A stretch of DNA of 36,998 nucleotides, from positions 1-36,998 of the forward strand of contig CAZQXM010000003.1 of assembly GCA_964597205.1 (NCBI GenBank), read 5' to 3'. Below the pieces are notes generated by a model, which was given only the letters and a program-made list of their open reading frames with translations, was not told the origin of the DNA and searched no databases. This DNA comes from an uncultured Gammaproteobacteria bacterium. Lineage in GTDB: Bacteria; Cyanobacteriota; Vampirovibrionia; LMEP-6097. Below are positions 12,576 through 36,468 of the stretch, piece after piece (the first letter of the stretch is position 1; each line of letters starts with the position of its first letter). The position numbers were made by a program, and so were the translations under genes.

Positions 12576-13406
12576 TTAATAGTCGTAATCTTTAAGCATT
12601 ACTCTTAACTTCTGCAAGGATTTCATATGTAATTGACTGACCCTAGATTCAGAGATGTCAAGCACCGCCCCAATCTCTTTAAATGTTAATTTTTGATAAT
12701 GGTATAAAGCCATAATCAAACGCTCACGCTTAGGCAGACGGTCTAGACATTGAGCCAGCTTGTCTTTAAGAAAAGCATTATCAACCATCTCATCTTGCGA
12801 AGCAGCGCCTGAAGGAACCTTGTCCACCAACGCAGCACCATCATCAAGAGATTTACCATCTTCCGGAATATCAAGCGAGAATATCATCGCTGCAGCTTCT
12901 TGGCGTATACCTTGAAGTTCAGCAGCATCAATATTCAAACTGTTCATCACTTCTTCTTCAGTAGGAGCTCTACCTAGTTTATGCTCAAGATCAGCAATAG
13001 CCTCATTCATTTTTTTGACACGCTGACGGCGACTACGAGAAAGAAAATCTCTAGAACGCAAGAAGTCAAGAATCTCACCACGAATCCTAGTTACAGCAAA
13101 AGTCTCGAATGAACATTTCTGCTGAGGATCAAATCTATCAATGGCTTCTATAAGACCGATAGTGCCATAACCTATTAAATCCTCTCTATCAAAATCAGCA
13201 GTCTCAATATAAGGGAAACGACCCACTACCCAATTAACCAAATAAGCATATTTTCTGATTAACTGATCACGCAATTGCTGGGGCTTATTCTTAGTGCTGT
13301 AAGTTGCCCAAAGTCTCTGGTTCTCTTCTTTCACTTGCAGCTTATTATTCTGTTGTTCTACAGACATAAGCACAGATCTAGACTTGGTTCTATTATCCCC
13401 TTTCAT
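12576..13406 (-). CDS. RNA polymerase sigma factor, sigma-70 family group 3 (FliA/WhiG/SigF-like)
   Basis: 276 aa. Region 2 is DLIGYGTIGLIEAIDRFDPQQKCSFETFAVTRIRGEILDFLR. Region 4 HTH is LTFKEIGAVLDISESRVSQLHMKSLQKLR. No region 1.1 or long spacer, which fits group 3. The start is coupled (ATGA) to the upstream ORF. Confidence 0.85.
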   Translation of the reverse strand: MKGDNRTKSRSVLMSVEQQNNKLQVKEENQRLWATYSTKNKPQQLRDQLIRKYAYLVNWVVGRFPYIETADFDREDLIGYGTIGLIEAIDRFDPQQKCSFETFAVTRIRGEILDFLRSRDFLSRSRRQRVKKMNEAIADLEHKLGRAPTEEEVMNSLNIDAAELQGIRQEAAAMIFSLDIPEDGKSLDDGAALVDKVPSGAASQDEMVDNAFLKDKLAQCLDRLPKRERLIMALYHYQKLTFKEIGAVLDISESRVSQLHMKSLQKLRVMLKDYDY

Positions 13407-21692: not shown

Positions 21693-22406
21693 ATGACACC
21701 ACACACACAAACTAGACAAGCGGCTATCGCCCTGAGTCCGGTGCAGTCTACTGTTCAAATCACTAAAGAATTGAACATGGCAGGCTACCACAAAATCGAC
21801 AGAGTAGATTATCAAGAAGCGCTAATCCAGATCGTGGAAGTAAACAAACCACAGATCGCTATCGTTTCTAGCGAACTTCCAGGTCGCAGATCTATAGTTG
21901 AAATGATGAACAAGATAGCTGAGCTATCCCCATCTACAAGAGTTATCTACATTTCTAAAGCAATGGGCAACAAAGAAGATATCGATATCTTCTTAACTAA
22001 GAACATGAGTGCTTGGTTGCTTAGCGAAAGATCAGAGCGTACTATGTCATTCGCTATCGAAGCGGCTGAAGCAGGTCAACTCTTCATCGATTTCGCTATT
22101 AGCCAAAATATCAGAGAACAAATCAGTGGCAAACAATCATTGCTAACTGATTCATGCTCAGATTATGGTCACCTAGAATTGCTCACTGAAAGAGAAGCTG
22201 AAGTGCTGAAACTTCTTTGTGAAGGTTCAAACTACAAAACTGTAGCTAAAGCATTATTCATCTCAGAATCTACAGTGAAAACTCACATCAATAACATTTT
22301 CACTAAATTGCAAGTTAATGATAGAACTCAAGCAGTTCTATACGCACTAAAGCATGACCTAGATGGTCTGATGACTGCGACAATGACTAGCAACACTAGA
22401 GCGTAA
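21693..22406 (+). CDS. LuxR/NarL-family transcriptional regulator with a degenerate (pseudo-)receiver domain
   Basis: 237 aa, RBS AGGAG 6 nt upstream. C-terminal LTEREAEVLKLLCEGSNYKTVAKALFISESTVKTHINNIFTKLQVNDRTQAV is a GerE/LuxR HTH. The N-terminal REC-like fold lacks the acidic pocket, the phospho-Asp (IAIVSSELPG) and the Lys (AWLLSE). Confidence 0.8.
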   Translation: MTPHTQTRQAAIALSPVQSTVQITKELNMAGYHKIDRVDYQEALIQIVEVNKPQIAIVSSELPGRRSIVEMMNKIAELSPSTRVIYISKAMGNKEDIDIFLTKNMSAWLLSERSERTMSFAIEAAEAGQLFIDFAISQNIREQISGKQSLLTDSCSDYGHLELLTEREAEVLKLLCEGSNYKTVAKALFISESTVKTHINNIFTKLQVNDRTQAVLYALKHDLDGLMTATMTSNTRA

Positions 22407-22638: not shown

Positions 22639-22884
22639 ATGAATAATGTTAACCCTGAGCTTTTGCACACTAAACCTGTGCTCGTAGATGTAGTCCCCGG
22701 TCAAAAAATCGCCTGGTGTTCTTGCGGCTACTCAGCCGATCAAATTCACTGCGATGGTTCGCACCGTGCCCATGGCATGAGACCAGTGGTTCAAGAATTT
22801 ACTGAAGCTAAGAAAGTCGCTTTATGTGGTTGCAAACTTACTGGCAATGCACCATTTTGTGATGGGTCGCATAGTAAAAAATAA
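22639..22884 (+). CDS. CDGSH iron-sulfur domain protein (two CDGSH-type [2Fe-2S] motifs)
   Basis: 81 aa. Two copies of the signature are present: CSCGYSADQIHCDGSHR and CGCKLTGNAPFCDGSH. Confidence 0.85.
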   Translation: MNNVNPELLHTKPVLVDVVPGQKIAWCSCGYSADQIHCDGSHRAHGMRPVVQEFTEAKKVALCGCKLTGNAPFCDGSHSKK

Positions 22885-23168
22885 TAATTGAACGCTTATC
22901 TCAATATAATAAATCACAAGGTGAGGTTCTCGCAAAAGATTATCAAGAATAATCCGTATTACAATCTTATCTATTCACAATTATGCACTCGAATAAAGCT
23001 CAAAAGTTAAGATGAAAATATTCTTATCAGAATTATAAAAATAAATTGAAATATTTATAATTTATTTGCTATTATCACCGTTCGGGGAAGAAGTAAATAA
23101 TTTCTTAAGAATGTGCCAAAATCTGTTTAACTGGGCCACATCCTCAGAAATTTAACTTCGGGGGCAAA

Positions 23169-24188
23169 ATGATACGAAAAAATAGAATAGTAGTACTCTA
23201 CTGTCTTTTGTTGGGTTTATCTCAGCAAGCCGGACTGGCAGAGACGGCAAGTCGAGGGGACGAGCCGCCTCAACTGATGTTGGAGTTTATAGATGATGCT
23301 CTTTCACCACCTTCAAGTGTGGTGATTGGTCGCGACGTTGCTAAAGCAAAAGATATTGCTGGCGTGACGTTAAGTCCTGCCGTAGTTGAAACGAAACATC
23401 AACTGCAAGCAGAGGAGCACGAGCTCTTACTAGAGAGTACTACTCATTCCTATTCGGCGAATGTCGAAGAACTTATTAACAGTATTAATGATGCTGAACT
23501 TAAAAAGCAATTAATCGCCAAAGCTTTTGGTGAAAGCAGTCGTAAACAATTAGATTCCGCTCAGCTACTTAGTGTTGCTGACGCGGCTCTTAGCCTAGGA
23601 CTTAAAGATCAAGCCTTAACAGCTTATCGCAAAGCTGTAGAGTTAGACCCCAATAGTCTTAGTGCTCATCATGCTCTAGCTAAAGCAAGCGCTGATACTA
23701 ATGAGCGCGCTTATAGTTTTCTTAAGAGTGTAAGTACTGAAGCGCTTACAAGTATTGCTGACACTTGGTTTGAGCTGAAAGGAGCTAATGCTACTACTAT
23801 AGCTGCCGCGATGATACCTTATCAGTTCGCGATTCTTAAAGAACCTAATAATCCTCATTTGCGCTATCAATTTGCACGCAGACTTGAGCTAGCTGGTCTT
23901 AGTTACTATTCACTCTCAACTAAACGCTATCTAGAATCAGCGGTGCTTGCTAAACAAAAATTCTTAGCTGGTGATAAAAGCGTAGAATTTTTACTCAGAG
24001 ATTCTATAGAGTCATTAATTAGGACTCTGGCTATTCAAGGTGATTTTGATAACGCCACCAAGTATTGTCATAGTTATATTAGTCTTGGCTACGATCGTTT
24101 CAGTGCTGGCGATTCGGTGCGTGGTATTTTGCGCAAGATGCAGTCTCGGCGTAATCCTTTTCGCATAGTTTTGGAGGCAAAAGCATGA
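23169..24188 (+). CDS. secreted TPR-repeat protein, first gene of the Tad-like operon (possible TadD analogue)
   Basis: 339 aa. Signal peptide MIRKNRIVVLYCLLLGLSQQAGLA. TPR-like helices (LGLKDQALTAYRKAVELDPNSLSAHHALAKA). No canonical lipobox. Its stop overlaps the next ATG (ATGA). Confidence 0.65.
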   Translation: MIRKNRIVVLYCLLLGLSQQAGLAETASRGDEPPQLMLEFIDDALSPPSSVVIGRDVAKAKDIAGVTLSPAVVETKHQLQAEEHELLLESTTHSYSANVEELINSINDAELKKQLIAKAFGESSRKQLDSAQLLSVADAALSLGLKDQALTAYRKAVELDPNSLSAHHALAKASADTNERAYSFLKSVSTEALTSIADTWFELKGANATTIAAAMIPYQFAILKEPNNPHLRYQFARRLELAGLSYYSLSTKRYLESAVLAKQKFLAGDKSVEFLLRDSIESLIRTLAIQGDFDNATKYCHSYISLGYDRFSAGDSVRGILRKMQSRRNPFRIVLEAKA

Positions 24189-25246
24189 AATTAGTTCTTG
24201 TAATGATTTTGTGCATATTGCCTTGCTGGGCTTTTGATGCTGATGATTATATTTCTAAGCTTTATAAGCCTATGCCTGCAGAGCTTCAAGCTTTGGAAAC
24301 TAGAGTCTTTGATCAAGCCTCTTACCAACGCGAGATTAGTCCTTGGCTTAACGACCTAGAGTTCAAGCTTAGTCGAGCAGGGCTCTCTAATATTGATGCT
24401 AGTTTTTTACTATTAATAGATAAGCAAGGTCGCATAGTTAATCTTGAACTTGATGATGCTCAAGTGGAGCCAGCAGCTTTGCGTGATTTCATTTCTAAAC
24501 TTGCTAGCTTGGAGTTTGAACCTAGCCCATTGGTGAATACACGACTACTGCTTGATGCTAAGACTTTAACTATTAGTCGTAATGAGAAGCTTGAAGCTCA
24601 CAGAGATACATTAATGGCAGACTTCGATTTACTCTCTAAGCATAATTTAGCACTAAATATTAGTGGGAAAAGCAACCTAACAAGCGACGCTAATAATCTA
24701 AGTCTTAAATCGAATCATACTTATGAAGCAACTTTAATTAGCCCAGAGTTTTTCTCAGCGGCTAGAGTTGGTGACACTATTAATTTCGAACTAGAATCTC
24801 AGCAGTATGTTGGCAGAGTAATAGATACTGGCAGAGAAATTATTATTGCAACTGATGCCCTATTAATTGCCAATGAAATTCAAGCTGATACCCTTCAATA
24901 CTGGCGTTTAGAGCAACGCAATGATAGTGGGACTTGGGATTCTATGATAGCTGGCGCTACTAGTGCTGGTCTGGGATTGGGGTTAGCCAGTCAAGGTCTA
25001 GGTACTGGGATTTTTGCTGGATTAGCGGCGCTTGCTACTAGGGTGCAAGATGCCGATATTAGTCTTAATCTTGGGGATAAGTTTTCTTTACGTAAGTTGG
25101 ATGTAAATGATTTAAGTGGCTCGTTGCCAAATCGTCCAGAACAAGGCTTGCGAGTCCGAGGCAGCGGAGTTGACTCATCTGTCAATGAGCATGCCGAGGA
25201 TGAGCGTAACGCAGTTATGGGCGATTTGGCAATGAGAGCCCTATAG
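24185..25246 (+). CDS. hypothetical secreted protein (TonB-C-like N-domain, C-terminal glycine-zipper segment)
   Basis: 353 aa with a signal peptide (MKLVLVMILCILPCWAF). FLLLIDKQGRIVNLELDDAQVEPAALRDFISKLASLEFEP resembles a TonB C-terminal fold. GATSAGLGLGLASQGLGTGIFAGLAALA is a glycine zipper. Confidence 0.55.
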   Translation: MKLVLVMILCILPCWAFDADDYISKLYKPMPAELQALETRVFDQASYQREISPWLNDLEFKLSRAGLSNIDASFLLLIDKQGRIVNLELDDAQVEPAALRDFISKLASLEFEPSPLVNTRLLLDAKTLTISRNEKLEAHRDTLMADFDLLSKHNLALNISGKSNLTSDANNLSLKSNHTYEATLISPEFFSAARVGDTINFELESQQYVGRVIDTGREIIIATDALLIANEIQADTLQYWRLEQRNDSGTWDSMIAGATSAGLGLGLASQGLGTGIFAGLAALATRVQDADISLNLGDKFSLRKLDVNDLSGSLPNRPEQGLRVRGSGVDSSVNEHAEDERNAVMGDLAMRAL

Positions 25247-25253
25247 GAGGAAT

Positions 25254-25394
25254 ATGCAAGCAATAAGTCAGATGGTAATACTAACGGCTCTAGTAGCACT
25301 TCTCGCTACTACAGTTGAGCAATCGATAGTGGCTAATGTCGAAAAACAAGCTACTAATACAGCTACGGCTGTTGCTAATAAAATTTTTAGTTAG
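25254..25394 (+). CDS. small Flp-like pilin candidate 1 (46 aa; not in the supplied ORF track)
   Basis: AGGAGG RBS at 25245-25250, 3 nt before the ATG. Hand translation: MQAISQMVILTALVALLATTVEQSIVANVEKQATNTATAVANKIFS, a single N-terminal hydrophobic helix plus a short Thr/Ala/Asn tail, sitting directly upstream of cpaB as Flp genes do. Confidence 0.5.
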   Translation: MQAISQMVILTALVALLATTVEQSIVANVEKQATNTATAVANKIFS

Positions 25395-25433
25395 CTTAGT
25401 TTAACTAATGGAGAGGAAAAAGGAGGAAAATAA

Positions 25434-25592
25434 ATGAAGGAAGTACTAATCTACGGAGCGCTAGTAGCGGCAGTGATGGGAGCGGCTATCCCACTTATCA
25501 CTAACTTTACTAGCACCGCTACGACTCAAGGTACAGCGATGAATACTGCGCTGCAAACCAAGTCGCAACAATTACTTACAGCAATAGGATAA
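25434..25592 (+). CDS. small Flp-like pilin candidate 2 (52 aa; not in the supplied ORF track)
   Basis: Strong RBS GGAGAGGAAAAAGGAGGAAAATAA-ATG. Hand translation: MKEVLIYGALVAAVMGAAIPLITNFTSTATTQGTAMNTALQTKSQQLLTAIG. LIYGALVAAV aligns with the IEYGLIVALIAV core of Flp pilins. Confidence 0.55.
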   Translation: MKEVLIYGALVAAVMGAAIPLITNFTSTATTQGTAMNTALQTKSQQLLTAIG

Positions 25593-25598
25593 TAATTT

Positions 25599-26438
25599 AT
25601 GAATTATGCCAATCATGGTCGGGGAGCCGCTTACAGCCGCTCGCTCTTGACTGTCACGTCTAAATACCGTCCTGTTCTTTTAGTGGTGCTGATAGTTCTC
25701 ATAATACTAGGCACTGCTGCTGCGATGGCAAGTTACTTACACTTGAAATCTAAGGTACGCGAATTAAGCGCACTAGAGCCAGTGAAGTTGCTAGCTGTAG
25801 CTAAGGAGCTTGAAGTGGGAGATGTGATTAGTGAAGATACTTTGGTGCCGATGTTTCTTTATAGACATGAATATGAACTAGCAAAAGAATCGTATGTGCC
25901 GGAAGCTAGCAAGCATCAGTTAATAGGTAGAGTGGTCAAGGTGCCGTTACTTGCTCGCAGTTTCATTCGCCAAGAGCATTTGGCTGAAATTGGTTCCCTG
26001 CCCGGATTGGTTAATTTATTAGATAGAGATCATTCGCTTCTAGATATCAATGTGCCACAACAAGGTTTCAATGTTTTTATTAGACCGGATGACAAGGTTG
26101 ATCTTTATGAAGTGAAAGATGATCACACTGAATTGATCGCAGTGCAAGTTAAAGTCATATTAGTAGACTCGCAGCCATTGGGTAGAGCTCCTTTAAAAGT
26201 AACTGTCGATCCACGTATGGAGCGGCAGCTAACACTAGCAGTGCCAGATGCAGTATTGCAGCGAGCACTGCGTGCTAAGCAAACGCATACATTGATGGCA
26301 ACTTATGGACATGAAGCTGCTAAGCCAGTCTATAGATCAAACCCAATAGCCAAGAAATTACCTAACAAGCCGATGCAGGAACTATTCGAGACCCTAGTTT
26401 TTATTAAGGGTGAAGAGAAAGAGGTTTTAAATAAATGA
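25599..26438 (+). CDS. cpaB: Flp pilus assembly protein CpaB/RcpC family
   Basis: 279 aa. N-terminal TM anchor, SAF-like segment (LAVAKELEVGDVISEDTL), and a C-terminal HSLLDINVPQQGFNVFIRPDDKVDLY matching the RcpC/CpaB pattern (rAvsv...G.i.PGd.VDv). Confidence 0.75.
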   Translation: MNYANHGRGAAYSRSLLTVTSKYRPVLLVVLIVLIILGTAAAMASYLHLKSKVRELSALEPVKLLAVAKELEVGDVISEDTLVPMFLYRHEYELAKESYVPEASKHQLIGRVVKVPLLARSFIRQEHLAEIGSLPGLVNLLDRDHSLLDINVPQQGFNVFIRPDDKVDLYEVKDDHTELIAVQVKVILVDSQPLGRAPLKVTVDPRMERQLTLAVPDAVLQRALRAKQTHTLMATYGHEAAKPVYRSNPIAKKLPNKPMQELFETLVFIKGEEKEVLNK

Positions 26439-27751
26439 AAGAGATACTTTTAGTTTCGGATATTGAAATTGATTCACAGTTAGAATTGACGAAAGCTGAA
26501 CTGGCTCATTATGCTTACAGCTTCTCTTTTCCAGTGCCAATTAATAGAGCGCTAGATGAGTTGCGTTCGTATTCACAAATCCTGATTAACGCTAGCGGCT
26601 CTAAACTAGCAGCACTTGAATTGGTGAAGGCTATTCGCCAGCAGCATAAAACTGCTATTAAGGTTTTTGTTTATCTGCCGGAGTCCAGTGCTAGTGAAGG
26701 TAGTAAATTCGGCTTATTAGGAGCAGAAGTTGAAGATGAGTTAAGTGTTCAACGTATCATCGACAAATTACCACAAGCTGATAAACGCGGTTACAACATT
26801 GATGAAGAGATTATAGCTATCTATGGTATGTATGGTGGTGCGGGGGCATCATTACTTAGTATTTTAATTTCTTATGTCTTGGGTAACTTAGGGCTTACTT
26901 CAGTGTTAATGGAACCTAGTCCCGCAGCTACTTCTATTCGTGACGCATTAGTGTTAGAGACTAAGCCAGCTTTATTAACCAGAGATAGAAATAAAGAAAT
27001 AGATTTAAGTAAAGATATGGACTGGTTCTCTGGTTTCGTTTCTCGTAGTCATTTTTTACGTGAAACTTTTTATTTACATTTGTTCAACTCTGCAGCAGCT
27101 CGAGATATTTTCAGTCTCAAGGCTGCTAGTTTCACTGAAAAAATATCTGAACAACTACTATCTATCTCTGACCGTAGTAAATATTATCAGCATAGCGCTG
27201 ATGAGCTAGAAGCTGCTTTAAGAGCTACTCGTAGCAGTTTGCAATTATTAGGACAAGAATTGAGTGGCAAATCATGCTCGCTATTTGATGAGGTTTTACA
27301 ACCTGGATCTCAGTTAGCTAAGTATTTCGTGGTGGATTTAGGCTCTGATATTAGCAGTCCGCTTAACAGACAGTTCTTACATTTTACTAAGCATCTAATA
27401 TTATTAATACGCGACAACTGTAGCTCTGATCTTAAAACAAATTTGCAGTCACAGGTCAAGTATCTTGAAGATACTTATCATCTTAATATCATTCCGGTGC
27501 TAGCTCCTGGACATCATAGATATAAAGATTATTATCGTTTTAGTGCTTCAGAATGGCAGTCATTACTTGGACTTGAGCCGCTAGTCTTTCCTTATCAACC
27601 AGATTTAGTTTCAGGATTTTTATTAGATCACGAGGACTTGGATAATAATTCAGCTTTGATCTTATTTGTTAAAAATTTGCTTGAAAGGATTGGTATTGTA
27701 GAAACTACTAGTCGTAAGTCGTTAATGGAATTTTTGGTGAGGAATGCTTAG
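26435..27751 (+). CDS. TadZ/CpaE-like pilus localisation protein (atypical receiver plus ParA/MinD-like domain with degenerate Walker A)
   Basis: 438 aa, positioned between cpaB and tadA. N-terminal REC-like fold without an obvious phospho-Asp. The P-loop position reads IIAIYGMYGGAGASLL instead of the deviant Walker A KGGxGK[ST]T. Confidence 0.6.
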   Translation: MKEILLVSDIEIDSQLELTKAELAHYAYSFSFPVPINRALDELRSYSQILINASGSKLAALELVKAIRQQHKTAIKVFVYLPESSASEGSKFGLLGAEVEDELSVQRIIDKLPQADKRGYNIDEEIIAIYGMYGGAGASLLSILISYVLGNLGLTSVLMEPSPAATSIRDALVLETKPALLTRDRNKEIDLSKDMDWFSGFVSRSHFLRETFYLHLFNSAAARDIFSLKAASFTEKISEQLLSISDRSKYYQHSADELEAALRATRSSLQLLGQELSGKSCSLFDEVLQPGSQLAKYFVVDLGSDISSPLNRQFLHFTKHLILLIRDNCSSDLKTNLQSQVKYLEDTYHLNIIPVLAPGHHRYKDYYRFSASEWQSLLGLEPLVFPYQPDLVSGFLLDHEDLDNNSALILFVKNLLERIGIVETTSRKSLMEFLVRNA

Positions 27752-29251
27752 ATGTTAATTGCTGCTGATAATTTAATTGATTTTAAATCCTCACCGGTGC
27801 AGCAAGGTAGGTTAGAGCGAGCACTAGCCTATCGAGCTGCGATTTATCCAGTGCTTGAAGCGATACTTGATCCACAGAATAAATCTCTTGAAGCTCAATC
27901 TTTGCAGCGTGATTTTGAACGTTCTGCTTCCTTGGCTGCTAAGCCAAGTTCAGCCAAGGAGCTTTATGCGATTAAACGCCAGAAATCAATAGTCTTGGCA
28001 GCTTTTATAGATAAAGTGATGCTCTCGCCATCACGGTTTGGACTAAGTTTCGCTCAGCCACCATCACAACAGGATAAACTTTGGACTAAAACGCTACTTA
28101 TATATGACCTGCTTTATTATGGTCCGATTACAGTGCTGGCTTTATCTAAGCTCTTAGCGATAGATGAGGATTTGCGTTTGAATCCTATGGCTCAGTTGAT
28201 GCAAGATTTAGCGCATAGTTATCAGGTTAACGAAATTAGAGTCAATCAAGCCTCTGATATATTTTTTGAATCAGGGTCTAAGATTTTTACTTGGCCAATA
28301 CCTTTTTTAAGTGATAGTCATTTGCAGCTAGTTATCGACAGAATGATTAGTGAATCTAATCTACTTTATAATGCTGCCATTAGTCTTAATAGTTCTCAAC
28401 CGATAGCTGATTTCGAGCATCCTTGCGGTTATATTCGTGGTGCAGCAATGATAGCTCCAGCTGCCGAGCATCCATTCTTAACTTTAAGACTGCATCCAGA
28501 GTCTCCTTACTCGCTTGACGATCTTATGGCTCTTAATATGTTCGATAGCCAGATTATGGAATTTCTGAAAGCCTGTCAGCTGGCTGGAACTACTATTGTG
28601 ATCGCTGGTACTATGGGCTCTGGTAAAACCACTCTCTTAAGCGCTTTAGCTGAGCACTGGCCAGTAGAGGGGCGCAAAGCAACTATCGAAGATACGCCCG
28701 AATTGAGACCGCGCATCGCTGATCTGGTGAAAATGCGTACTATTGAGCGTGATCAATTTAAAAATATAGATGTAGCTTGTTTAACTAAAGCTTGCAAGCG
28801 CCATAGTGTACGCTATGTAGTTCTCTCAGAAGCTAGAGATTATTCTGCTTGGGAGATTTTACAGCTATCGCAAGCGATATTAGGTTCACTCATGACTTTT
28901 CACTATACTTTGCGCGGTACTCGATATTTGGTGGATCAAGCTCTTAGTGCTTTGGTAGCTTTATGTAAGCAGCACCCACTAGCTCCTAGTGGTGAAGATC
29001 TTAAACATCAAATCGCTAGTATGGTGCAGATACTTATACTAATAGAACAAGATCCCATCGATAGCATACGACGCATAGTGAGAATTTATCATGTGCTTGG
29101 TTATGATGAACTTAATGGCGGGCATTTTAAGGCTCTAGAACTCTTTAGTTATCAGTCTTCTGTTAACAATTTTAGACTAGAGAACTCATCTAAAGAATTT
29201 GAAGAATATTTAAAATCAAAAGGAATAAATTATGTTTTTGCTCGGTCTTAG
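27752..29251 (+). CDS. tadA: TadA/CpaF-family secretion ATPase (type II/IV secretion NTPase)
   Basis: 499 aa. IVIAGTMGSGKTTLLSAL (Walker A), IEDTPEL (Asp box), VRYVVLSEARD (Walker B), GSLMTFH (His box). Confidence 0.9.
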   Translation: MLIAADNLIDFKSSPVQQGRLERALAYRAAIYPVLEAILDPQNKSLEAQSLQRDFERSASLAAKPSSAKELYAIKRQKSIVLAAFIDKVMLSPSRFGLSFAQPPSQQDKLWTKTLLIYDLLYYGPITVLALSKLLAIDEDLRLNPMAQLMQDLAHSYQVNEIRVNQASDIFFESGSKIFTWPIPFLSDSHLQLVIDRMISESNLLYNAAISLNSSQPIADFEHPCGYIRGAAMIAPAAEHPFLTLRLHPESPYSLDDLMALNMFDSQIMEFLKACQLAGTTIVIAGTMGSGKTTLLSALAEHWPVEGRKATIEDTPELRPRIADLVKMRTIERDQFKNIDVACLTKACKRHSVRYVVLSEARDYSAWEILQLSQAILGSLMTFHYTLRGTRYLVDQALSALVALCKQHPLAPSGEDLKHQIASMVQILILIEQDPIDSIRRIVRIYHVLGYDELNGGHFKALELFSYQSSVNNFRLENSSKEFEEYLKSKGINYVFARS

Positions 29252-30158
29252 TATCGTAGTTCTAGCTTTAGTTGCCTTGTTACTAGCCTTATATTTAAGT
29301 CCTAACCTAAGACGGCAACATCCTTTGCTTAGGGTAGGTGCTAGATTCTTTGCTACCAATGAATTAATGCTTTGCGCTAATCACATAAAATCTTTTTTAA
29401 TCTCCGAGCGCTTTAATTTCCTTGATTGCCATCTTGGTAAAAACACTTTACTAAAATTAGCAGTTCCTTCGTTACTGTTTTTGGCTCTTGGGCTTTTTGT
29501 TTTAGGACCGATTTTAGTTGGACCTAGTCTTGGTCTGGTCTTGGGTTTATTAATTGCCTTAGCGTATATTTCTAGGTTAATTCTGCATTGCTATCTGGTT
29601 TTTAGAGACGGTTTATTGGCGCAAATAGAGAGGATATTACTTAGTATCCGCAATAATCTTAGTGCTGGTATGACTCTTGATTACGCGGTGACAGACGTTG
29701 CTATAGCTAGCAAGGATGAGCCAGTCTCAAGTGATTTGCGTGGATTTCTGCAGCGTGCTGAAGTTAATTTTTTAGAAAGTTTTCCGTCTTGGCTTGATAA
29801 TTTGCGCCATAAATTTCATTTACGTTCTTTAGCCAAATCTTCTCAATTATTAGGGCTTGAATTACATTACACCAATAATCAAGAAGAAGCTTTCCTCGAT
29901 GCGGTTAATTCTGTGCATAACGCGCTTAGTAGTAATAAAAAACAACGCTCAACTTTAACCATCACTTTATTCACTCTAGATTTTATTGTTTTGGCTTTTT
30001 TCGCCGTTTTATTTTATGTTATTCCATCATTTACCCTTGGTTCTGATTTGAGTTGGTGGAATTCTGCTGAGAGACCGTGGGTAATATTTCAATCTGGCTT
30101 AGTAATTTGGGGTGCTTATTTGATCACCATAGCTCTAGCCTTAAGGAGACAAGAGTGA
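29232..30158 (+). CDS. tadB: TadB-like inner-membrane platform protein (T2SSF-type domain)
   Basis: 308 aa. Polytopic, with a cytoplasmic helical domain (ILLSIRNNLSAGMTLDYAVTDVA) typical of GspF/TadB. Position immediately after tadA. Confidence 0.65.
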   Translation: MFLLGLSIVVLALVALLLALYLSPNLRRQHPLLRVGARFFATNELMLCANHIKSFLISERFNFLDCHLGKNTLLKLAVPSLLFLALGLFVLGPILVGPSLGLVLGLLIALAYISRLILHCYLVFRDGLLAQIERILLSIRNNLSAGMTLDYAVTDVAIASKDEPVSSDLRGFLQRAEVNFLESFPSWLDNLRHKFHLRSLAKSSQLLGLELHYTNNQEEAFLDAVNSVHNALSSNKKQRSTLTITLFTLDFIVLAFFAVLFYVIPSFTLGSDLSWWNSAERPWVIFQSGLVIWGAYLITIALALRRQE

Positions 30159-31015
30159 TTGCTATATTAGTTGTGGGCTTTGCCTCCGTTATTTTACTTC
30201 TACTGCTTAATCGTGCTTATCTCAGCACTGAATTGAGTTTGCAACGCTTACCAATACTGGAGCGTAGGACAACTATTCATTATGCTGAGCCTAAATTCTT
30301 GGAGCGATTTAATCCCTTGATTAGATCTTTATTACCAGAGACTCTACTACAGACACTTGAATCGGAATATCTATATCTAGGACGCAAGCTTGAATTGCTT
30401 TATGAATTAATCGTCCAAATCTTCTTAGTCTTCGCTTCTTTATTCTTTGCCTACTTATTAAATCACAATAGTTATTTTTTAATTCTAGCCTTGTTGATCC
30501 CAGCGCTATTGATTATTGAACTTAAATGCTCGCTTGCCAGTTATCACCGTGAGTTAGAAGCTGATAGCGCACATCTATTTGCTTGCGCTAGAGTCTTGCT
30601 GATTAACACCGAAACCCCAATGATCTTGGCTTTAAGAATTATAGTTAGCACTTGGCCTAATGCTAATTCCGCCACTGTGCATGAGCTTAATAAAATTATT
30701 AACAAGATAGATAAACTAGGGGCTAAAGAAGCACTTAGTAATTGGCAAGTGAAATCTGAGAAGTTTCGTGATTTCTTGTCATTCTTAGTTTCAGTTGCTG
30801 AGGGCTCTAGTAAAAGAGCGCTCAGAGCAGCTCTCGATAAATTAATAGAAAGCTCTCGCCAAGAAGAAAAAGACCGTCTACAAGAGCGGGCTGATAATTT
30901 ACAGCTCTATCTTATGGGTCCAGTAGTAGCGATGCTGTTAGTTGTTATGTATCCAATGGCAGCAGCGATAAATTTTATGATGCAAAACAGTCTATTAAAA
31001 GGGGATGGAATATGA
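30155..31015 (+). CDS. tadC: TadC-like inner-membrane platform protein (T2SSF-type domain)
   Basis: The start is reassigned to the GTG at 30155 (AAGGAG RBS 6 nt upstream, GTGA overlap with the tadB stop) rather than the track start 30077. N-terminal TM VIAILVVGFASVILLLLL, helical middle domain, C-terminal TM. Confidence 0.65.
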   Translation: MIAILVVGFASVILLLLLNRAYLSTELSLQRLPILERRTTIHYAEPKFLERFNPLIRSLLPETLLQTLESEYLYLGRKLELLYELIVQIFLVFASLFFAYLLNHNSYFLILALLIPALLIIELKCSLASYHRELEADSAHLFACARVLLINTETPMILALRIIVSTWPNANSATVHELNKIINKIDKLGAKEALSNWQVKSEKFRDFLSFLVSVAEGSSKRALRAALDKLIESSRQEEKDRLQERADNLQLYLMGPVVAMLLVVMYPMAAAINFMMQNSLLKGDGI

Positions 31016-32760
31016 AAAGGACAAGCATGGGAAAACTTATGATAGTGGGATTATTATTGCTACTAATGCTAGATGTGAGCGCAGAGCCAATTATTAATTT
31101 TGCCGCTGATCAAGCCTTGAAGATTCGCAAGGTTTTTACTGTTGGGCAAGTAGAAATACTAGATTTCGCCAAACCAGTATCACTAGCGCATTATGGTGCT
31201 AATGAAGAGTCGCTGAATTATGTCGAATTGGATAAATTAGAGCCAGAAAAAGATGGCTATCGTAAATTTATAGTTAAAGCCAAGAAACCGGGCTATGGTG
31301 AAATGACTTTTAGATCTGGTACTGATCTAATTAAGATAGAAATAGTAGTGCAGAATGATTATCAACTATTAGAATCTCAACTAAACGAACTCTTCGGTAT
31401 CCATGATGCTAACCTGGACCCAGAGGATAAAATCCAAGTTATTCCAGCAGCTCATATTGGTAATGTCTCTAGTGAAGCTAGGGTAGACGCTCACATATAT
31501 CTTAAAGGACAAGTAGCTAGTCCTAAAGATGCGATGCTTGCTGTTGCTTTTGCCGCTAATGCTGTTGGTGATACTGGTGTTAAGATCTTTTCTAATCCGG
31601 GCGGTCAACTAAGAGCTAAAGACTTAGATAGTGAGCAAGCCGAGAAAACTCAACAAGCTGCTCCTAGTAGTTCGAATCCAGCCACCGCTACTTTCGCGGA
31701 ATTTTATGAATCTACTAATAAACTTATAGACACTAATAATTTACATAGAGATTTAGTACTCGCTTCTAACAACGAAAGGGTAATTTCTTTTATTCATATT
31801 AAAGAACCAGATAGATTTTCTGTTAGGGTGCGTTTCTTAGAGGTTGATGCGCGTCATCTTAATGAATTTTCTAGCAGTTTGTTTGCTACCAATTCTGGTG
31901 GTGATGTTCAAGGTGCTGTTGGTTCAGATCTACTCGGCGTGCCCGATGTAAGTAGTGCCCCAGCTAGCTCAGCTTCGGTACTGACAAATCTACTAAGGAC
32001 TTCACTTAGCCCAGCGGCTATTACTAGTCCTGGTTTGGCGAATGCTGGTAATCTAGTCGCTGGCATTTTTAACGTGGTGGATAATCTGAATGTCAGCGCT
32101 TCTATAAGTGACTTACTGCAAGAAGGTGTACTTAGGGTGGTTAATGAGTTCTCGCTTATTACTCACTCCGGTGAGCGCATTTCTCTAGGCAAGGGTACTA
32201 GGTTCCCATTACCGCAAATCAATAATACTTTAGGTGGCACCCAACTGAGCGTGCAATATATTCCTATAGGTTTTAAGGGTGAGCTTAAAGTTACCGATCT
32301 AGAGGATGGCATGATAGATGTGCAATTGGCTAGCAGGCTTACAGCTGCCGAGTCTTCTAACCTTACTTTTATAGAAGGAGTGGCTGTGCCTATATTTAAA
32401 GAAGAATTCGTTAATAGTGGAGCGATGCTAAGAAGCGGACAAGAAGTAGTGCTCAATAGCTTCTTTACTGAGTTTGAGACCATAGCTAAATCCTCTTCGC
32501 CATTGGGTCGTATATTGCCATTATTCGGTAAGTCGCGCAAAGCTGAGAAAAAACGTAGCATGTTATTCGTCGCGCTTAAGGTAGAACAGATATCACCTAA
32601 TCTCAATTCACCAGACTTCAGTTTGCCGCATGTCGATTTCAGCCAGAAGAAAAATATCTACAATAATTATTTAGGTGATCTCAAGGTGAATAATAAGAAG
32701 GAAGAGGCTGCGCTGGATCCTTTAAGTACTGGTGCTACTTTGCCGGGGGTAGAGATTTAA
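31012..32760 (+). CDS. cpaC: outer-membrane secretin, CpaC/RcpA type
   Basis: 582 aa. Signal peptide, pilus-formation N-domain (IKIEIVV), BON/secretin-N-like LKGQVASPKDAMLAVAFAANA. C-terminal secretin domain (ITHSGERISLGKGTRFP...VQYIPIGFKGELKV...SGAMLRSGQEVVLNSFF...SSPLGRILPLFGKSR...MLFVALKVEQI). Confidence 0.8.
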   Translation: MKRTSMGKLMIVGLLLLLMLDVSAEPIINFAADQALKIRKVFTVGQVEILDFAKPVSLAHYGANEESLNYVELDKLEPEKDGYRKFIVKAKKPGYGEMTFRSGTDLIKIEIVVQNDYQLLESQLNELFGIHDANLDPEDKIQVIPAAHIGNVSSEARVDAHIYLKGQVASPKDAMLAVAFAANAVGDTGVKIFSNPGGQLRAKDLDSEQAEKTQQAAPSSSNPATATFAEFYESTNKLIDTNNLHRDLVLASNNERVISFIHIKEPDRFSVRVRFLEVDARHLNEFSSSLFATNSGGDVQGAVGSDLLGVPDVSSAPASSASVLTNLLRTSLSPAAITSPGLANAGNLVAGIFNVVDNLNVSASISDLLQEGVLRVVNEFSLITHSGERISLGKGTRFPLPQINNTLGGTQLSVQYIPIGFKGELKVTDLEDGMIDVQLASRLTAAESSNLTFIEGVAVPIFKEEFVNSGAMLRSGQEVVLNSFFTEFETIAKSSSPLGRILPLFGKSRKAEKKRSMLFVALKVEQISPNLNSPDFSLPHVDFSQKKNIYNNYLGDLKVNNKKEEAALDPLSTGATLPGVEI

Positions 32761-32933
32761 TGTTTTGGGCAGCACTATTCTCAACGGCGATAGCATTTAG
32801 TCTAATTTGGGCTTTTATTACTCAATCTTGGATGAGTGCTGCAAGTTTTATTCAAGCCGAAACTAGTCAAATCCAAACTTATAAACCCAGTGCTAAAACC
32901 AATCAAAATTTAACGGAGCTATTAGTGTCATGA
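32760..32933 (+). CDS. small N-terminally hydrophobic protein (57 aa; possible minor/pseudopilin; not in the ORF track)
   Basis: The ATG overlaps the secretin stop (TAATG) and its stop overlaps the next ATG (ATGA). Hand translation: MFWAALFSTAIAFSLIWAFITQSWMSAASFIQAETSQIQTYKPSAKTNQNLTELLVS. Confidence 0.4.
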   Translation: MFWAALFSTAIAFSLIWAFITQSWMSAASFIQAETSQIQTYKPSAKTNQNLTELLVS

Positions 32934-33292
32934 ATCCTAACTATATATCATTAGCTTTTTTAATCGTGATGATTCCTTTAGTCATAACAGGGCAGTTAAT
33001 GCCAGCATTTAATTTGCATATAGCTAGTGATAGAGAAGCTTTGGTCCGCCAGCAAACAGAGATAGAGCTAGCTAAGAGCCTTCGTCTTAGTAAACCCTTA
33101 AATCAAGTGCAAGATGATTTAGTTAAACTAAAATTGCCGGGTCTTGATATTAAATCTGCATTAGTGAGCATTGATGGTGAATATGTTTTAGCTGAACTTG
33201 CTTATCAATATTCTGGTTTACTAGTCACTAAATTTTTCACACAACAGAATCAAGTTAAAACAATAAAAGTAGCGACAGTGAGAGTAGATTAA
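32930..33292 (+). CDS. hypothetical protein with an N-terminal TM helix (possible TadE/TadF-like pseudopilin)
   Basis: 120 aa. MNPNYISLAFLIVMIPLVITGQL followed by a beta-rich soluble part. The position matches tadE/tadF in Tad loci. There is no strong motif match. Confidence 0.45.
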   Translation: MNPNYISLAFLIVMIPLVITGQLMPAFNLHIASDREALVRQQTEIELAKSLRLSKPLNQVQDDLVKLKLPGLDIKSALVSIDGEYVLAELAYQYSGLLVTKFFTQQNQVKTIKVATVRVD

Positions 33293-33294
33293 TT

Positions 33295-34083
33295 ATGAAA
33301 AACCATACAGCCATAGTAGTAGAAGATCAACCAGTAATTTGGGATTATGCGAATTACTGTCTTAAGGATACTTGTCATATCTTAGATTTTTGTACTAATA
33401 CCGCTGAAGCAGAGGAAGCTTTCTTTCAATATAGACCTGATTTGGTTTGGTTAGATTGTTATTTAGGCGAAATCTCTGATTCTAGTAATGGACCTAAGAA
33501 TAGTGGGCTAGCTTTGGCTGCTTGGATTAAGTGTCATAGACCTAAAACCAAAATATTTCTTTTTACTGCTTCTCATGATCCGACCATCCTTAAAGCTGCT
33601 CGTGATATTGGTATTGAAGGAATCGCTCTAGGCGGCAAGTTTGTGCGTGATCGGCATATTATAGTTTCTGGGATTAGAGCAGTGCTTGAGGGTAAACAAT
33701 GGATCAGTCCGCATTTAGTGGAGAATTTTGAATTGGATGATTTAGCTAGAGTTACTGTTTTTGAGTTTGCGGTTTTCTGTTCTATACTGCTTGGTAAATC
33801 TACCGCGCAAATAGCAGAGGAGCTTGATACTACACGTAAACGGGTTAATAATGCGATCTATAGAGTTAGAGAGAAACTAGAAATAGATGTCTCAGCCTCT
33901 AAAGATTATGCTTTAGATCTGATTCGCAATAAAGTCTTAGAGAAGTTGCAGTTTAATGATAGCTATGTAGTCTCTGATATTATGGCAATTAATACTGCTA
34001 TCTATGAATTTCTAAGCCCAGTATTGGCTAAGCTGAAATCAGGCATGCTTAGTAGGGTCTATCTTGATCCAGTCTTGGTTTAA
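33295..34083 (+). CDS. response regulator, canonical receiver plus LuxR/sigma-70-region-4-like HTH and a C-terminal extension
   Basis: 262 aa. IVVEDQP, DLVWLDCYL (phospho-Asp), IFLFTAS, GIALGGK form the complete REC catalytic set. HTH is STAQIAEELDTTRKRVNNAIYRVREKL. Last gene of the Tad-like operon. Confidence 0.75.
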   Translation: MKNHTAIVVEDQPVIWDYANYCLKDTCHILDFCTNTAEAEEAFFQYRPDLVWLDCYLGEISDSSNGPKNSGLALAAWIKCHRPKTKIFLFTASHDPTILKAARDIGIEGIALGGKFVRDRHIIVSGIRAVLEGKQWISPHLVENFELDDLARVTVFEFAVFCSILLGKSTAQIAEELDTTRKRVNNAIYRVREKLEIDVSASKDYALDLIRNKVLEKLQFNDSYVVSDIMAINTAIYEFLSPVLAKLKSGMLSRVYLDPVLV

Positions 34084-36282
34084 TTAACCGGACATGCTCG
34101 GGATTAAATGTGCAGCATCTGCGGTTTTGACAGCTGGTGCTAGCCTGTTTGCTGGCATTGGATTATTGAGCGGCATATTCATAGCTGCTTGCATTTGTTG
34201 TTGTATAGGATTTTCAGGAGTTTCACTTCTTACGTAGAAGAATTTTTTAATCACTGTAAGCGGTATCGCTATGATCCCGCCTAAACCAGGTATTAAGCCT
34301 CGTATTATAGTCTCAATTCTAGTCAACAAGTTATAAACTTGTTGTTTTCCTTTATCACGCTGACTTAATTCACCAACTGGAACAGAAGTTTTAAAGAGCT
34401 TACCAGTGATCGGATTCAAGATTAGAGTCTTAAGGAATCTTCTAGATACGTCCAATGATGTGATAGTTTTAACGTGGCGTTCTTGACTTTGCGCTTCTTT
34501 TTCTAATCGGTTGAGTAATTCTAGATAGCTTGATTCATGGTGGAACACATTGGCTCCAAGCTCTTTATCATGGATAATGCGATTGAGTGCTTGACCAACA
34601 AATCTAGCAAACGGTATCCAATTGCTATTAAGTAGTTTCTCTTGTAGCTTAACTAATTCATCCATAGCGTTGTAGCTGAAATCACCCTTAGCTAATGCAT
34701 ATTTTTGTCTCTGACCAAAAACCATAGCAATGATTTTTGGTACACGAGTGCTGCAAGCGTAGACCATAAAGCTTGGTAGAGCAAGGAAGGTTGAAGCTAA
34801 GCCTAATCCAATATCAAGGCTCTTCATCAACCAATTACCCTGAGCTTGTATATCTGGGTCACTGATTCTTGGAATCGCTGCTGGTAATAGCATCAATAAG
34901 GATTGTATTGGTCTAGTGATGTGATCAAGCTCTTCAATAATTGTATTTTTATTGATAAAGCCTTTGATCTTGTTTTGAGGGTCTTTTTGTATCTGCTCTA
35001 AGGCTTCTCTTTGCTCTGGCGACATCTCTGCTAATTCTTTTTCAGTTCGTGTTCGTGCTGATAAGGTGATGCGCTCAGTACTTGCATCATAAGGAAGTAT
35101 CGTCCTCATTAGATCTTTTACCAGAGGCATGTTGCAAATTGACTCAGCTCCTGTTATTAACCAAGATTTACAGTTATCAATAGTCCTATTTACAGTTCCT
35201 TCTATCTGTGCGGAAGTTTGATCTAGATCAATTTTTGCAAGCGTTTTAATATTGTACTTATCACCTATTTTCTGTAACACTTCGCGTATCTTGGAAGTAA
35301 AGCCTGTTAAATATTGGCTTACCATTTTTTGTTGTTCCCCTTCACTAAAAATCTTTCTGAATCTAGAGAAAGAACCAAATAATGATGGTATGGCTAATAA
35401 TGAACCTATAACTCCCTGCAATATATGAGAACCATTGATGCCGTAGTGTCCATTTGCCTGAGCCTGGCTCATTCCTGTTGTCCTAGCAAGTTTAAATGAC
35501 ATTAAAGTCTTATAGAAAGCATTAAGATTGGCTGATACTGGCTGAAAAACGTCACCCAATCGAGCTATAAAATTAGCAGCTTTATATTTAATATTGTTAT
35601 TGTTGTAGGTATTTCCCAGTCTGAAAATTGCGGCACTAGCATAACCTGGTATCGACAAAAGAGTACCAAGTAGAGAAGTAAATTTAGCAAGCGGTGGAAA
35701 GAATGCTTCCCAAGCACTAGCAATTTTAGTATTCTCGCCTTCTGGTTTTTTAAGGAAGAAGCTTGAAGCCATATTCTCATAAGAAAATATTAGAGACCCA
35801 ATACTGCCGGCAAGTCTTGGGTCAAGAATATTATTAAGCCAGCCAAGTTTAGGACCAAGAAATTTTTTAAATTCTGGATAACTTTGCTCTATCTTTTCAC
35901 CAAGATTAGTTTTGTTAGGGTTTTCTGGACTTGCTATTTCCTTCCTAGCCAAATCTGAAACTACTGCCCTACCTCTAGTAAGTGGTGTACTAACAGTTCC
36001 TATTACTCTTGAGATGAAAGTAAGAAAATCATGGAAGAGGTCTCTTTGCTGATTATCCGAACCAAATTGAGCAACTTGCTCTGCTTGGTTGGCAAGTATG
36101 CCACCCATCGCCGCTAAACCTAATAAACCTAGAGGAAGAGTTCTTTGGCCAGGAGTTAAAGTTTCCTGTGCAATAGCATTGCTGGCTGCTGCGGGGCCGC
36201 CAGCAAATATGCGCTTGAACCACGGCCGTGGCTCTTGTTGAGCTCCAATGATGCTCATCTTATTTAGCCAGTAATCTGGCAA
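34084..36282 (-). CDS. large hypothetical membrane-associated protein, no recognisable family
   Basis: 732-aa uninterrupted ORF. The track start is TTG at 36282, with an ATG alternative at 36258 (MSIIGAQ...). Several Gly/Ala/Leu-rich hydrophobic segments, helical polar regions, and a Q/N/P/M-rich C-terminal tail. Confidence 0.65.
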   Translation of the reverse strand: MPDYWLNKMSIIGAQQEPRPWFKRIFAGGPAAASNAIAQETLTPGQRTLPLGLLGLAAMGGILANQAEQVAQFGSDNQQRDLFHDFLTFISRVIGTVSTPLTRGRAVVSDLARKEIASPENPNKTNLGEKIEQSYPEFKKFLGPKLGWLNNILDPRLAGSIGSLIFSYENMASSFFLKKPEGENTKIASAWEAFFPPLAKFTSLLGTLLSIPGYASAAIFRLGNTYNNNNIKYKAANFIARLGDVFQPVSANLNAFYKTLMSFKLARTTGMSQAQANGHYGINGSHILQGVIGSLLAIPSLFGSFSRFRKIFSEGEQQKMVSQYLTGFTSKIREVLQKIGDKYNIKTLAKIDLDQTSAQIEGTVNRTIDNCKSWLITGAESICNMPLVKDLMRTILPYDASTERITLSARTRTEKELAEMSPEQREALEQIQKDPQNKIKGFINKNTIIEELDHITRPIQSLLMLLPAAIPRISDPDIQAQGNWLMKSLDIGLGLASTFLALPSFMVYACSTRVPKIIAMVFGQRQKYALAKGDFSYNAMDELVKLQEKLLNSNWIPFARFVGQALNRIIHDKELGANVFHHESSYLELLNRLEKEAQSQERHVKTITSLDVSRRFLKTLILNPITGKLFKTSVPVGELSQRDKGKQQVYNLLTRIETIIRGLIPGLGGIIAIPLTVIKKFFYVRSETPENPIQQQMQAAMNMPLNNPMPANRLAPAVKTADAAHLIPSMSG

Positions 36283-36391: not shown

Positions 36392-36468
36392 TGGTGTGCT
36401 TGGCGGGATTCGAACCCACGACCCCCAGTTCCGGAAACTGGTGCTCTATCCAGCTGAGCTACAAGCAC
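36392..36468 (-). tRNA. tRNA-Arg (anticodon CCG), CCA end encoded
   Basis: Reverse complement: GTGCTTG-TA-GCTC-AGCTGGATA-GAGC-A-CCAGT-TTCCGGA-ACTGG-GGGTC-GTGGG-TTCGAAT-CCCGC-CAAGCAC-A-CCA. This gives a 7-bp acceptor stem, a full cloverleaf, a TTCGAAT T-loop and anticodon loop TT-CCG-GA. Confidence 0.9.

Follow-up and report, generated by a model that had tools for sequence, protein, structure and literature searches.

The 36,998-nucleotide (nt) stretch of DNA analyzed here (the window; GenBank assembly GCA_964597205.1, contig CAZQXM010000003.1) carries, at positions 23169 to 34083 of the plus strand, a 13-gene operon for a machine of the Tad/Flp pilus type. With confidence only a little above even, we read this operon as encoding a lineage-specific, highly divergent, Tad-derived (type IVc) filament machine whose leaderless Flp-like subunits would bypass prepilin processing. 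The evidence that carries this interpretation comprises the gene content of the operon, the homology of six of its products to core Tad parts, the absence of a leader from the small pilin-like proteins, a degenerate Walker A motif in the TadZ-like protein, the conservation of the cassette in related genomes, and purifying selection on every gene.

A compact operon under purifying selection

The initial annotation described thirteen plus-strand genes with almost no spacers between them, and both the open reading frames (ORFs) and the overlaps that it listed were confirmed at the sequence level. The 13 ORFs form an unbroken run, of which 12 are found at a threshold of 50 amino acids (aa); the 13th (g02b, positions 25254 to 25394, 46 aa) lies within an apparent 188-nt gap before a 52-aa ORF. 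Read from the sequence, the junctions include ATGA overlaps at 24185, 26435, 31012, and 32930, a one-base TAATG overlap at 32760, a TAG that abuts an ATG at 27751/27752, and a GTGA overlap at 30155, where the start codon is backed by a 286-aa gene call in the closest relative (locus L084). The ATPase gene, g06, overlaps g07 by 20 nt (29232 to 29251), and the widest spacer inside the cluster measures 39 nt (25394 to 25434).

Locus L084, whose ATPase is 89% identical to that of the window, served as the reference for all ratios of nonsynonymous to synonymous substitution rates (dN/dS). These fall between 0.03 and 0.19 for 13 of 13 ORFs, the four small ones included, indicating purifying selection throughout; because selection acts on all 13, the small ORFs are real genes rather than chance ORFs.

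Homology to the Tad core machinery

When single sequences were searched against Pfam and NCBIfam, several operon proteins had no match at all, and the matches obtained for the others were weak (T2SSE, 6e-18; pilus_cpaB, 1e-13; Secretin, 4e-7; T2SSF, 3.5e-6; RcpC, 2e-3). Orthologs from related loci were assembled into family profiles and compared with solved structures and with the canonical Tad proteins of outgroup loci, the identity of which was verified with Pfam. Unrelated control pairs reached a probability of at most 0.1% in the hhalign comparisons. Judged from these profiles, the machine is Tad-type, as the initial annotation had proposed from the presence of CpaB, TadZ, TadA, TadB, TadC, and secretin homologs.

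The secretion ATPase of the CpaF/TadA type, g06 (27752 to 29251, plus strand), was detected by Pfam as T2SSE, and its family profile retrieved the CpaF structures (8rkd and 9e24) at 4e-24, ahead of VirB11 (8e-14) and FlaI (6e-13). The catalytic motifs are intact: none of 30 sequences deviates in Walker A (GSGKTT), the Asp box (EDTPE), Walker B (LSEARD), or the His-box residue H384. The g06 clade consists of ∼58 proteins at 40 to 100% identity, after which identity falls sharply to ∼29% for ordinary CpaF, and a crude neighbor-joining tree places the clade as a long-branched sister outside all sampled bacterial CpaF sequences. Residues 1 to 150 of g06 (27752 to 28200) are kept within the clade and match neither CpaF nor any other solved structure; this N-terminal region looks like a clade-specific domain.

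The periplasmic CpaB/RcpC-like protein, g04 (25599 to 26438, plus strand), carries an N-terminal membrane anchor, with the transmembrane segment at residues 26 to 44. It matches TIGR03177 (pilus_cpaB) with 51 bits, under the 71-bit equivalog cutoff, and Pfam RcpC more weakly; the family-level comparison with canonical CpaB is far stronger (hhalign probability of 97.8%, E value of 1e-12). The two inner-membrane platform proteins were identified by the same approach. The TadB-like g07 (29232 to 30158, plus strand), with four hydrophobic segments, had no Pfam match as a single sequence, with a weak T2SSF match in only 2 of 18 family members, nothing in the Protein Data Bank (PDB) for its profile, and no significant similarity to g08 in hhalign; its family nonetheless aligns with canonical TadB/TadC at 95.2% probability (E value of 2.7e-8). 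The TadC-like g08 (30155 to 31015, plus strand), which starts with GTG, scores above the Pfam T2SSF cutoff, and its family matches canonical T2SSF proteins with an hhalign E value of 2.6e-4. Finally, g09 (31012 to 32760, plus strand) resembles the RcpA/CpaC outer-membrane secretins and carries a signal peptide; it passes the Pfam Secretin cutoff (30.2 bits against 27.5), and the one significant PDB match of its family profile is the Tad secretin RcpA (8odn, 5e-5).

A type IV secretion identity for g06 was considered and rejected. Its NCBIfam matches to VirB11 and TrbB, at 85 and 70 bits, are far under the 250- to 300-bit equivalog cutoffs, the profile search of the PDB prefers CpaF, and the neighboring genes encode CpaB, TadZ, T2SSF, and secretin proteins, not VirB/Trb channel components.

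Leaderless small proteins in the flp position

Immediately before cpaB, in the position of flp, lies g03 (25434 to 25592, plus strand), a candidate Flp-like subunit of 52 aa (MKEVLIYGALVAAV...). Its ATG in the window comes right after an in-frame TAA, and an AGGAGG sequence lies 8 nt upstream; with a stop abutting the start and a Shine-Dalgarno site just before it, no leader is possible. The rest of the family likewise lacks a leader. The gene is present in 23 of 23 loci, where an MK[ED] start is always preceded by a Shine-Dalgarno site, and 19 of these loci contain no start codon whatsoever between the upstream stop and the Met of MK[ED]. An exhaustive HMMER (phmmer) search of 1.84 billion representative proteins yielded 12 relatives of g03, all of which start with MK[ED], two of them having been annotated with plainly miscalled upstream starts.

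All members share the N terminus MK[ED][VI]LIYG, and residues 1 to 22 show 77% pairwise identity, compared with 29% for residues 23 to 52. This N-terminal identity spans lineages whose ATPases are just 38 to 60% identical, while the length of the protein ranges from 46 to 80 aa across loci. Such hyperconservation of the N terminus is, in sequence terms, the pattern of a type IV pilin. Y7 is invariant and G8 is found in 19 of 20 sequences (Ala in the remaining one), with hydrophobic residues next. In Tad filaments, Y6 and G7 of the Flp motif pack the core, and Glu5 of the Caulobacter Tad pilus forms no salt bridge (PMC10710030). The Y7-G8 pair of g03 matches this Y6-G7 motif, and when the Tyr residues are aligned, the initiator Met of g03 falls at the position of the prepilin Gly at −1. 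Separately, 16 of 20 sequences have a Pro at position 20, reminiscent of Pro22, which breaks the helix in type IVa pilins and is reported to be absent from Tad pilins (PMC10710030).

A second pilin-like candidate, g02b (25254 to 25394, plus strand; 46 aa, MQAISQMVILTALVALLATT...), is likewise leaderless and begins with a hydrophobic helix. It has AGGAGG 5 nt upstream and a dN/dS of 0.11, matches no family, and is kept in L004, L005, and L084 only.

Prepilin, prepilin peptidase, and minor subunits

A hidden Markov model (HMM) of A24 prepilin peptidases was built from Pfam-verified peptidases of the outgroup Tad loci, which had first been found by their GxGDxKL motif. The model recovered 8 to 11 peptidases in those outgroup loci as a positive control and nothing (best E value of 0.41) in a total of 449 kb, made up of the window and ∼10 kb on either side of 27 related cassettes. 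The lack of a TadV/CpaA peptidase that had been noted for the operon and the window thus extends to the surroundings of 28 cassettes. Neither the window nor the ∼10-kb flanks of any related cassette contained an ORF with a class III signal peptide, and profile searches for A24 peptidase, Flp_Fap, and TadE found none of these at the cassette. Conversely, the outgroup Tad loci have canonical Flp genes with the G/XXXXEY motif and, after them, genes identified with Pfam as TadE.

Two further small proteins follow the secretin. The 57-aa g10 (32760 to 32933, plus strand; dN/dS of 0.09) has a hydrophobic helix from residue 2 and no leader, and its counterpart (54 to 78 aa) is kept in position in 17 of 17 complete loci; no family match was found for it. 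The 120-aa g11 (32930 to 33292, plus strand; dN/dS of 0.11) has a hydrophobic helix at residues 6 to 24, again with no leader, and a counterpart of 87 to 125 aa occupies the same position in all complete loci. It could be either a minor-pilin-like protein or a bitopic protein resembling PilN/PilO.

An ordinary, peptidase-dependent Tad pilus is the alternative that has to be weighed most carefully. Its real Flp prepilin and a TadV/PilD peptidase would be encoded elsewhere in the genome, and g02b, g03, g10, and g11 would be accessory inner-membrane parts. Several results speak for this alternative and, accordingly, against leaderless subunits. Neither Flp_Fap (PF04964) nor any other Pfam or NCBIfam family matches g03; an hhalign comparison of g03 with Flp sequences of outgroup loci and two further sequences was not significant (P = 0.06); the search of 1.84 billion proteins recovered no canonical Flp along with g03; and the conserved Glu of g03 is at position 3, not 5. 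We infer the link between g03 and Flp from where the gene lies, how large its product is, how conservation is distributed along it, and a short motif. Among the putative minor subunits, neither g10 nor g11 matches TadE (PF07811), the g11 family aligns with outgroup TadE at an hhalign probability of only 0.8%, and a low-confidence AlphaFold2 (AF2) model of g11, made with four database homologs (mean predicted local distance difference test score [pLDDT] of 47), places four strands after a long N-terminal helix. There is also ample precedent for unlinked components: prepilin peptidases are often "loner" genes shared between systems (PMC6668835), the gene for the major pilin of the Myxococcus Kil system, kilP, lies outside the kil cluster, independent of the cluster's own peptidase (PMC12075869), and a gastranaerophilalean melainabacterium encodes pilA-D, including pilD (PMC5877343). 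A canonical prepilin and its peptidase could therefore still be encoded beyond the ∼10-kb flanks of the cassettes.

Against these points stand the placement of g03 in the flp slot upstream of cpaB in every one of the 23 loci, its pilin-like size, its all-helical design and hyperconserved N terminus, and the fact that no known Tad accessory protein resembles it; furthermore, both the prepilin and the peptidase are missing near all 28 cassettes, whereas outgroup Tad loci show both. On this evidence, an ordinary pilus with its prepilin and peptidase encoded elsewhere appears unlikely, if still a serious contender.

A TadZ homolog without Walker A lysines

The TadZ/CpaE-like g05 (26435 to 27751, plus strand) combines an atypical receiver domain with a ParA/MinD fold. 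Over the P-loop region, its family profile matches the ParA-like protein PF-32 (3k9g, 5e-4), residues 1 to 81 match response regulators, and in hhalign the family aligns with canonical CpaE over 299 columns (probability of 83.6%, E value of 8e-6). In the receiver-like N terminus, Asn replaces the phosphorylatable Asp. The degenerate Walker A motif reads GGxG[AST]S, with both lysines absent from 18 of 18 members, in place of the KGGxGK[ST] of the outgroups; in the most divergent members, the P-loop glycines are lost as well. The gene is nevertheless under strong purifying selection (dN/dS of 0.045), and a scaffold role that does not involve nucleotide binding fits this combination. As far as its motifs indicate, g05 is probably a pseudo-ATPase that serves only as a scaffold or localization factor.

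Conservation of the cassette

About 24 related species-level metagenome-assembled genomes (MAGs) share the order of the cassette: a small protein, CpaB, the TadZ-like protein, the ATPase, the TadB-like and TadC-like proteins, the secretin, another small protein, a protein of ∼110 aa, and a response regulator. In the closer subclade only, this shared core is preceded by a gene for a tetratricopeptide repeat (TPR) protein (g01) and a gene for a protein of ∼300 to 350 aa (g02). The initial annotation had singled out six departures from described Tad loci: no A24 peptidase, pilin candidates without a leader or G/XXXXEY motif, a TPR protein and a 353-aa protein at the head of the operon, a secretin after tadC rather than before tadZ, a TadZ homolog devoid of P-loop lysines, and a closing response regulator. 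All six are real, and comparison of synteny in related genomes identifies them as family traits. The leaderless start is found throughout the g03 family, the secretin follows tadC in every locus, the response regulator is the last cassette gene in every complete locus, and the two opening genes are present as described, limited to the closer subclade. Because the order recurs across relatives, these deviations are fixed lineage traits, not accidents of one genome; by this comparison, the cassette is typical of its order rather than an oddity of a single assembly.

So thorough a remodeling, with the secretin moved, TadZ turned into a pseudo-ATPase, g01 and g02 added, and TadE, TadF, and TadG unrecognizable, might also reflect a change of function. 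The machine could build no extended adhesive pilus but a short, leaderless pseudopilus or piston for secretion or contact-dependent attack, as in the type II secretion system (T2SS) or Kil. Some Vampirovibrionia are predators (PMC5877343), and Tad-like systems kill in Myxococcus (PMC8460266, PMC12075869). No effector-like or toxin-like genes, however, are conserved beside the cassette in the related loci, and nothing in the sequence tells a short filament from a long one. A secretion or attack device of this kind seems improbable.

That the operon is merely a decaying Tad remnant that has lost its leader, Walker A motif, and peptidase, as the missing hallmark motifs and a split ATPase gene in one relative might suggest, is hardly credible and effectively refuted by the conservation data, given 13 of 13 intact ORFs under purifying selection, invariant ATPase catalytic motifs, and a gene order kept, along with the "defects," across lineages whose ATPases are down to 35 to 40% identical. 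The split gene is that of locus L016, on a 1-Mb long-read contig, where the cassette ATPase is divided into two ORFs of 167 and 301 aa (L016:9971 to 11474), either by a frameshift that made it a pseudogene or by an assembly or polishing error.

Proposed mechanism and accessory genes

For a Tad-derived filament machine with leaderless subunits, we infer the polymerization of g03, the noninvolvement of a peptidase, and the roles of g01, g02, g10, g11, and g12. In such a machine, which would cross the whole cell envelope, the catalytically intact, CpaF-like hexameric ATPase g06 would drive the inner-membrane platform formed by the TadB- and TadC-like g07 and g08, g05, having lost its nucleotide-binding lysines, would act purely as a scaffold or localization factor, and the CpaB-like g04 would bridge the periplasm to the RcpA-like secretin g09. 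The polymerized subunit would most likely be g03, possibly together with its 46-aa paralog g02b. Each would correspond in essence to the mature portion of an Flp pilin, its initiator Met standing where a prepilin has Gly at −1, and since there is no leader to remove, neither would need an A24 prepilin peptidase. The N-terminally anchored g10 and g11 may act as minor subunits or alignment proteins.

The first gene of the operon, g01 (23169 to 24188, plus strand), encodes a predicted secreted TPR protein of 339 aa that matches Pfam TPR_14 and TPR_11 at the gathering cutoffs. Its N terminus is signal-peptide-like, with no lipobox, and its dN/dS is 0.07; it occurs in 13 loci of the closer subclade at 36 to 74% identity and is absent from the divergent loci. 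It may be a relocated counterpart of TadD, a TPR lipoprotein that acts as secretin pilotin, and may help the secretin in the closer subclade. The next gene, g02 (24185 to 25246, plus strand), encodes a protein of 353 aa with no assigned function and a dN/dS of 0.19; its N-terminal part includes a hydrophobic segment that looks like a signal, and a second hydrophobic stretch, rich in glycine, is located around residue 270. No Pfam or NCBIfam family was found for it, and its single-sequence AF2 model is uninformative (pLDDT of 35); homologs of 21 to 36% identity occupy the same position in 12 loci.

The operon closes with g12 (33295 to 34083, plus strand), a response regulator with a receiver domain (Response_reg, 8e-9) and a helix-turn-helix (HTH) domain of the LuxR/sigma-70 region 4 type, to which Pfam adds matches to Sigma70_r4_2 and GerE. 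At 41 to 74% identity across loci and a dN/dS of 0.03, it is among the best-conserved genes of the cassette. In an alignment of 17 sequences, E10, D11, D54, and K115 are invariant, T91 is nearly so, and the HTH is highly conserved; going by these residues, g12 is phosphorylatable. No kinase gene is linked to the cassette, and g12 would couple expression of the operon to an unlinked kinase.

Host and genomic neighborhood

Phylogenetic markers place the host among the melainabacteria (Vampirovibrionia, order Caenarcaniphilales/"Caenarcanales"). All named relatives among the 120 best matches of the alanyl-tRNA synthetase (AlaRS) are "Candidatus Melainabacteria" or "Cyanobacteria bacterium REEB446," NuoB is nearest to cyanobacterial and chloroplast NdhK, and cassette-bearing genomes are titled Melainabacteria, Vampirovibrionia, or "Candidatus Caenarcanales." These three lines agree with the cyanobacteria-related host suspected from the NdhK-like NuoB. 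The MAGs with the closest cassettes (L004, L005, L006, L011, L012, L014, L017, and L018) are titled "uncultured Gammaproteobacteria"; as the cassette, AlaRS, and NdhK point to Melainabacteria, these titles are probably labeling errors in third-party assemblies. One very large assembly, GCA_013565675.1, with contig numbers above 350,000, holds both L001 and L084, whose ATPases are 61% and 89% identical to that of the window, respectively; with two different cassettes there, the sample must contain at least two such melainabacteria.

On the upstream side, the operon is bounded by a 284-nt spacer before g01. This spacer contains the top-scoring plus-strand promoter-like site, TTGAAA-18-TATTAT with a TG element (23046 to 23075), which has 10 of 12 consensus matches; it is tentative, a consensus match only, in a window where the number of such sites is not above the shuffled expectation. 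Farther upstream lie an orphan second regulator of the LuxR/GerE type with a weak and degenerate receiver domain (21693 to 22406, plus strand) and, after it, a small CDGSH iron-sulfur protein (22639 to 22884, plus strand); both are kept in L084 and are elsewhere outside the cassette. Downstream, a convergent gene sets its stop codon against that of g12 (34083/34084) with no spacer. This gene (34084 to 36282, minus strand) is a 732-aa ORF with several hydrophobic segments and no Pfam family; L004, L005, and L084, but not more distant loci, have a homolog of it at this place. A terminator scan of the window gave nothing above the shuffled background, and an Rfam scan found no regulatory RNA there, the sole RNA family detected being a tRNA-Arg (CCG) at 36392 to 36468 on the minus strand.

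Other genes bear on the biology of the host. A FliA-type sigma factor is encoded in the window (12576 to 13406, minus strand), and in L001, flagellar rod genes of the FlgF/FlgG type are directly upstream of the cassette (L001:2740 to 5046); judged from these genes, these Caenarcaniphilales are probably flagellated. The 972-aa SecA of the window (9607 to 12525, minus strand) has a DEAD-like match that extends over residues 13 to 430 against a profile of 290 positions, and the excess over the profile length points to an insertion of ∼130 residues in the motor domain.

Significance

Cleavage of the leader by an A24 aspartic peptidase is considered a universal, defining step of pili, T2SS, competence pili, and archaella (PMC6668835, PMC12075869). 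The literature library searched contained no description of a Tad system in Melainabacteria or of a leaderless type IV pilin. It is possible, with a likelihood that we put somewhat short of even, that the operon represents the first type IV filament system to dispense with the class III signal peptide and prepilin peptidase altogether. Its subunits, with Met for the Gly at −1 and an acidic third residue, would be made "mature," enter the membrane, and be polymerized directly by a CpaF/TadBC motor. Together with a TadZ scaffold blind to nucleotides and a response regulator of its own, this would make a streamlined arrangement fixed across an order of nonphotosynthetic cyanobacteria. If this is true, a conserved natural system with leaderless subunits would demonstrate that leader cleavage is dispensable, and it would offer a minimal model for the purpose of the leader in membrane orientation, the timing of assembly, or the chemistry of the N terminus. 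The weight of the finding hinges on whether the leaderless protein is the polymerized subunit. Furthermore, an entire clade of Tad-like systems escapes the standard detection models, the Vampirovibrionia, whose biology is little known, gain a surface organelle, and the lysine-free TadZ is a natural test of the need for nucleotide binding in TadZ scaffolding.

Comparison with known systems

The type IV filament superfamily is built on five key functions: an ATPase, an inner-membrane platform, a pilin, a prepilin peptidase, and, in diderms, a secretin (PMC6668835). The operon supplies the ATPase, platform, and secretin together with a pilin-like subunit that has no class III signal, and the peptidase was not found locally.

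The closest known systems are the Tad/Flp pili of Aggregatibacter actinomycetemcomitans (flp-tadV-rcpCAB-tadZABCDEFG) and Caulobacter crescentus (pilA-cpaA-F). Six core parts are shared with them, namely, the CpaF/TadA ATPase, split TadB and TadC, CpaB/RcpC, a TadZ/CpaE protein that joins a receiver to a ParA domain, and the RcpA/CpaC secretin. As in those systems, a gene for a very small, all-helical subunit heads the assembly genes, the genes are tightly packed in one operon that includes one for a TPR protein, and no ATPase is dedicated to retraction. The differences are equally consistent. Leader and G/XXXXEY motif are both missing from the subunits, which keep Tyr-Gly and are acidic at position 3; tadV/cpaA is missing in and near the cassette; and the secretin follows tadC, not rcpC. 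The g05 protein has no Walker A lysines, whereas canonical TadZ keeps ATP binding (PMC6668835). TadE, TadF, and TadG are unrecognizable, and a response regulator that joins a receiver to an HTH domain is fixed in the last position. As a member of the Tad group, the operon thus departs from its relatives in having neither an Flp prepilin, a local A24 peptidase, nor TadE/TadF, and in the altered P-loop of its TadZ; furthermore, its divergence puts most parts under the curated family cutoffs.

The Kil system of Myxococcus xanthus, which kills prey on contact, is likewise a remodeled, Tad-derived machine from outside the proteobacterial model lineages whose pilin and peptidase are not obvious from the gene cluster (PMC8460266, PMC12075869). 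However, leaders containing a G/XXXXE site are found on KilP and on every Kil minor pilin, and KilA is the peptidase of the system (PMC12075869); neither feature is present in the cassette described here.

A more distant resemblance is to the archaeal Epd-like, EppA-dependent pili, the proposed ancestors of Tad, which share small pilins, adjacent platform genes, and an ATPase accompanied by a secondary P-loop protein (PMC6668835). Archaeal pilins can also do without the conserved Glu5 (PMC10710030, PMC6668835). Unlike the operon studied here, the archaeal pili need class III signal peptides and EppA/PibD and have no secretin or CpaB, and the ATPase g06 itself scores 88 bits against CpaF, far above the 51 bits that it reaches against archaeal FlaI.

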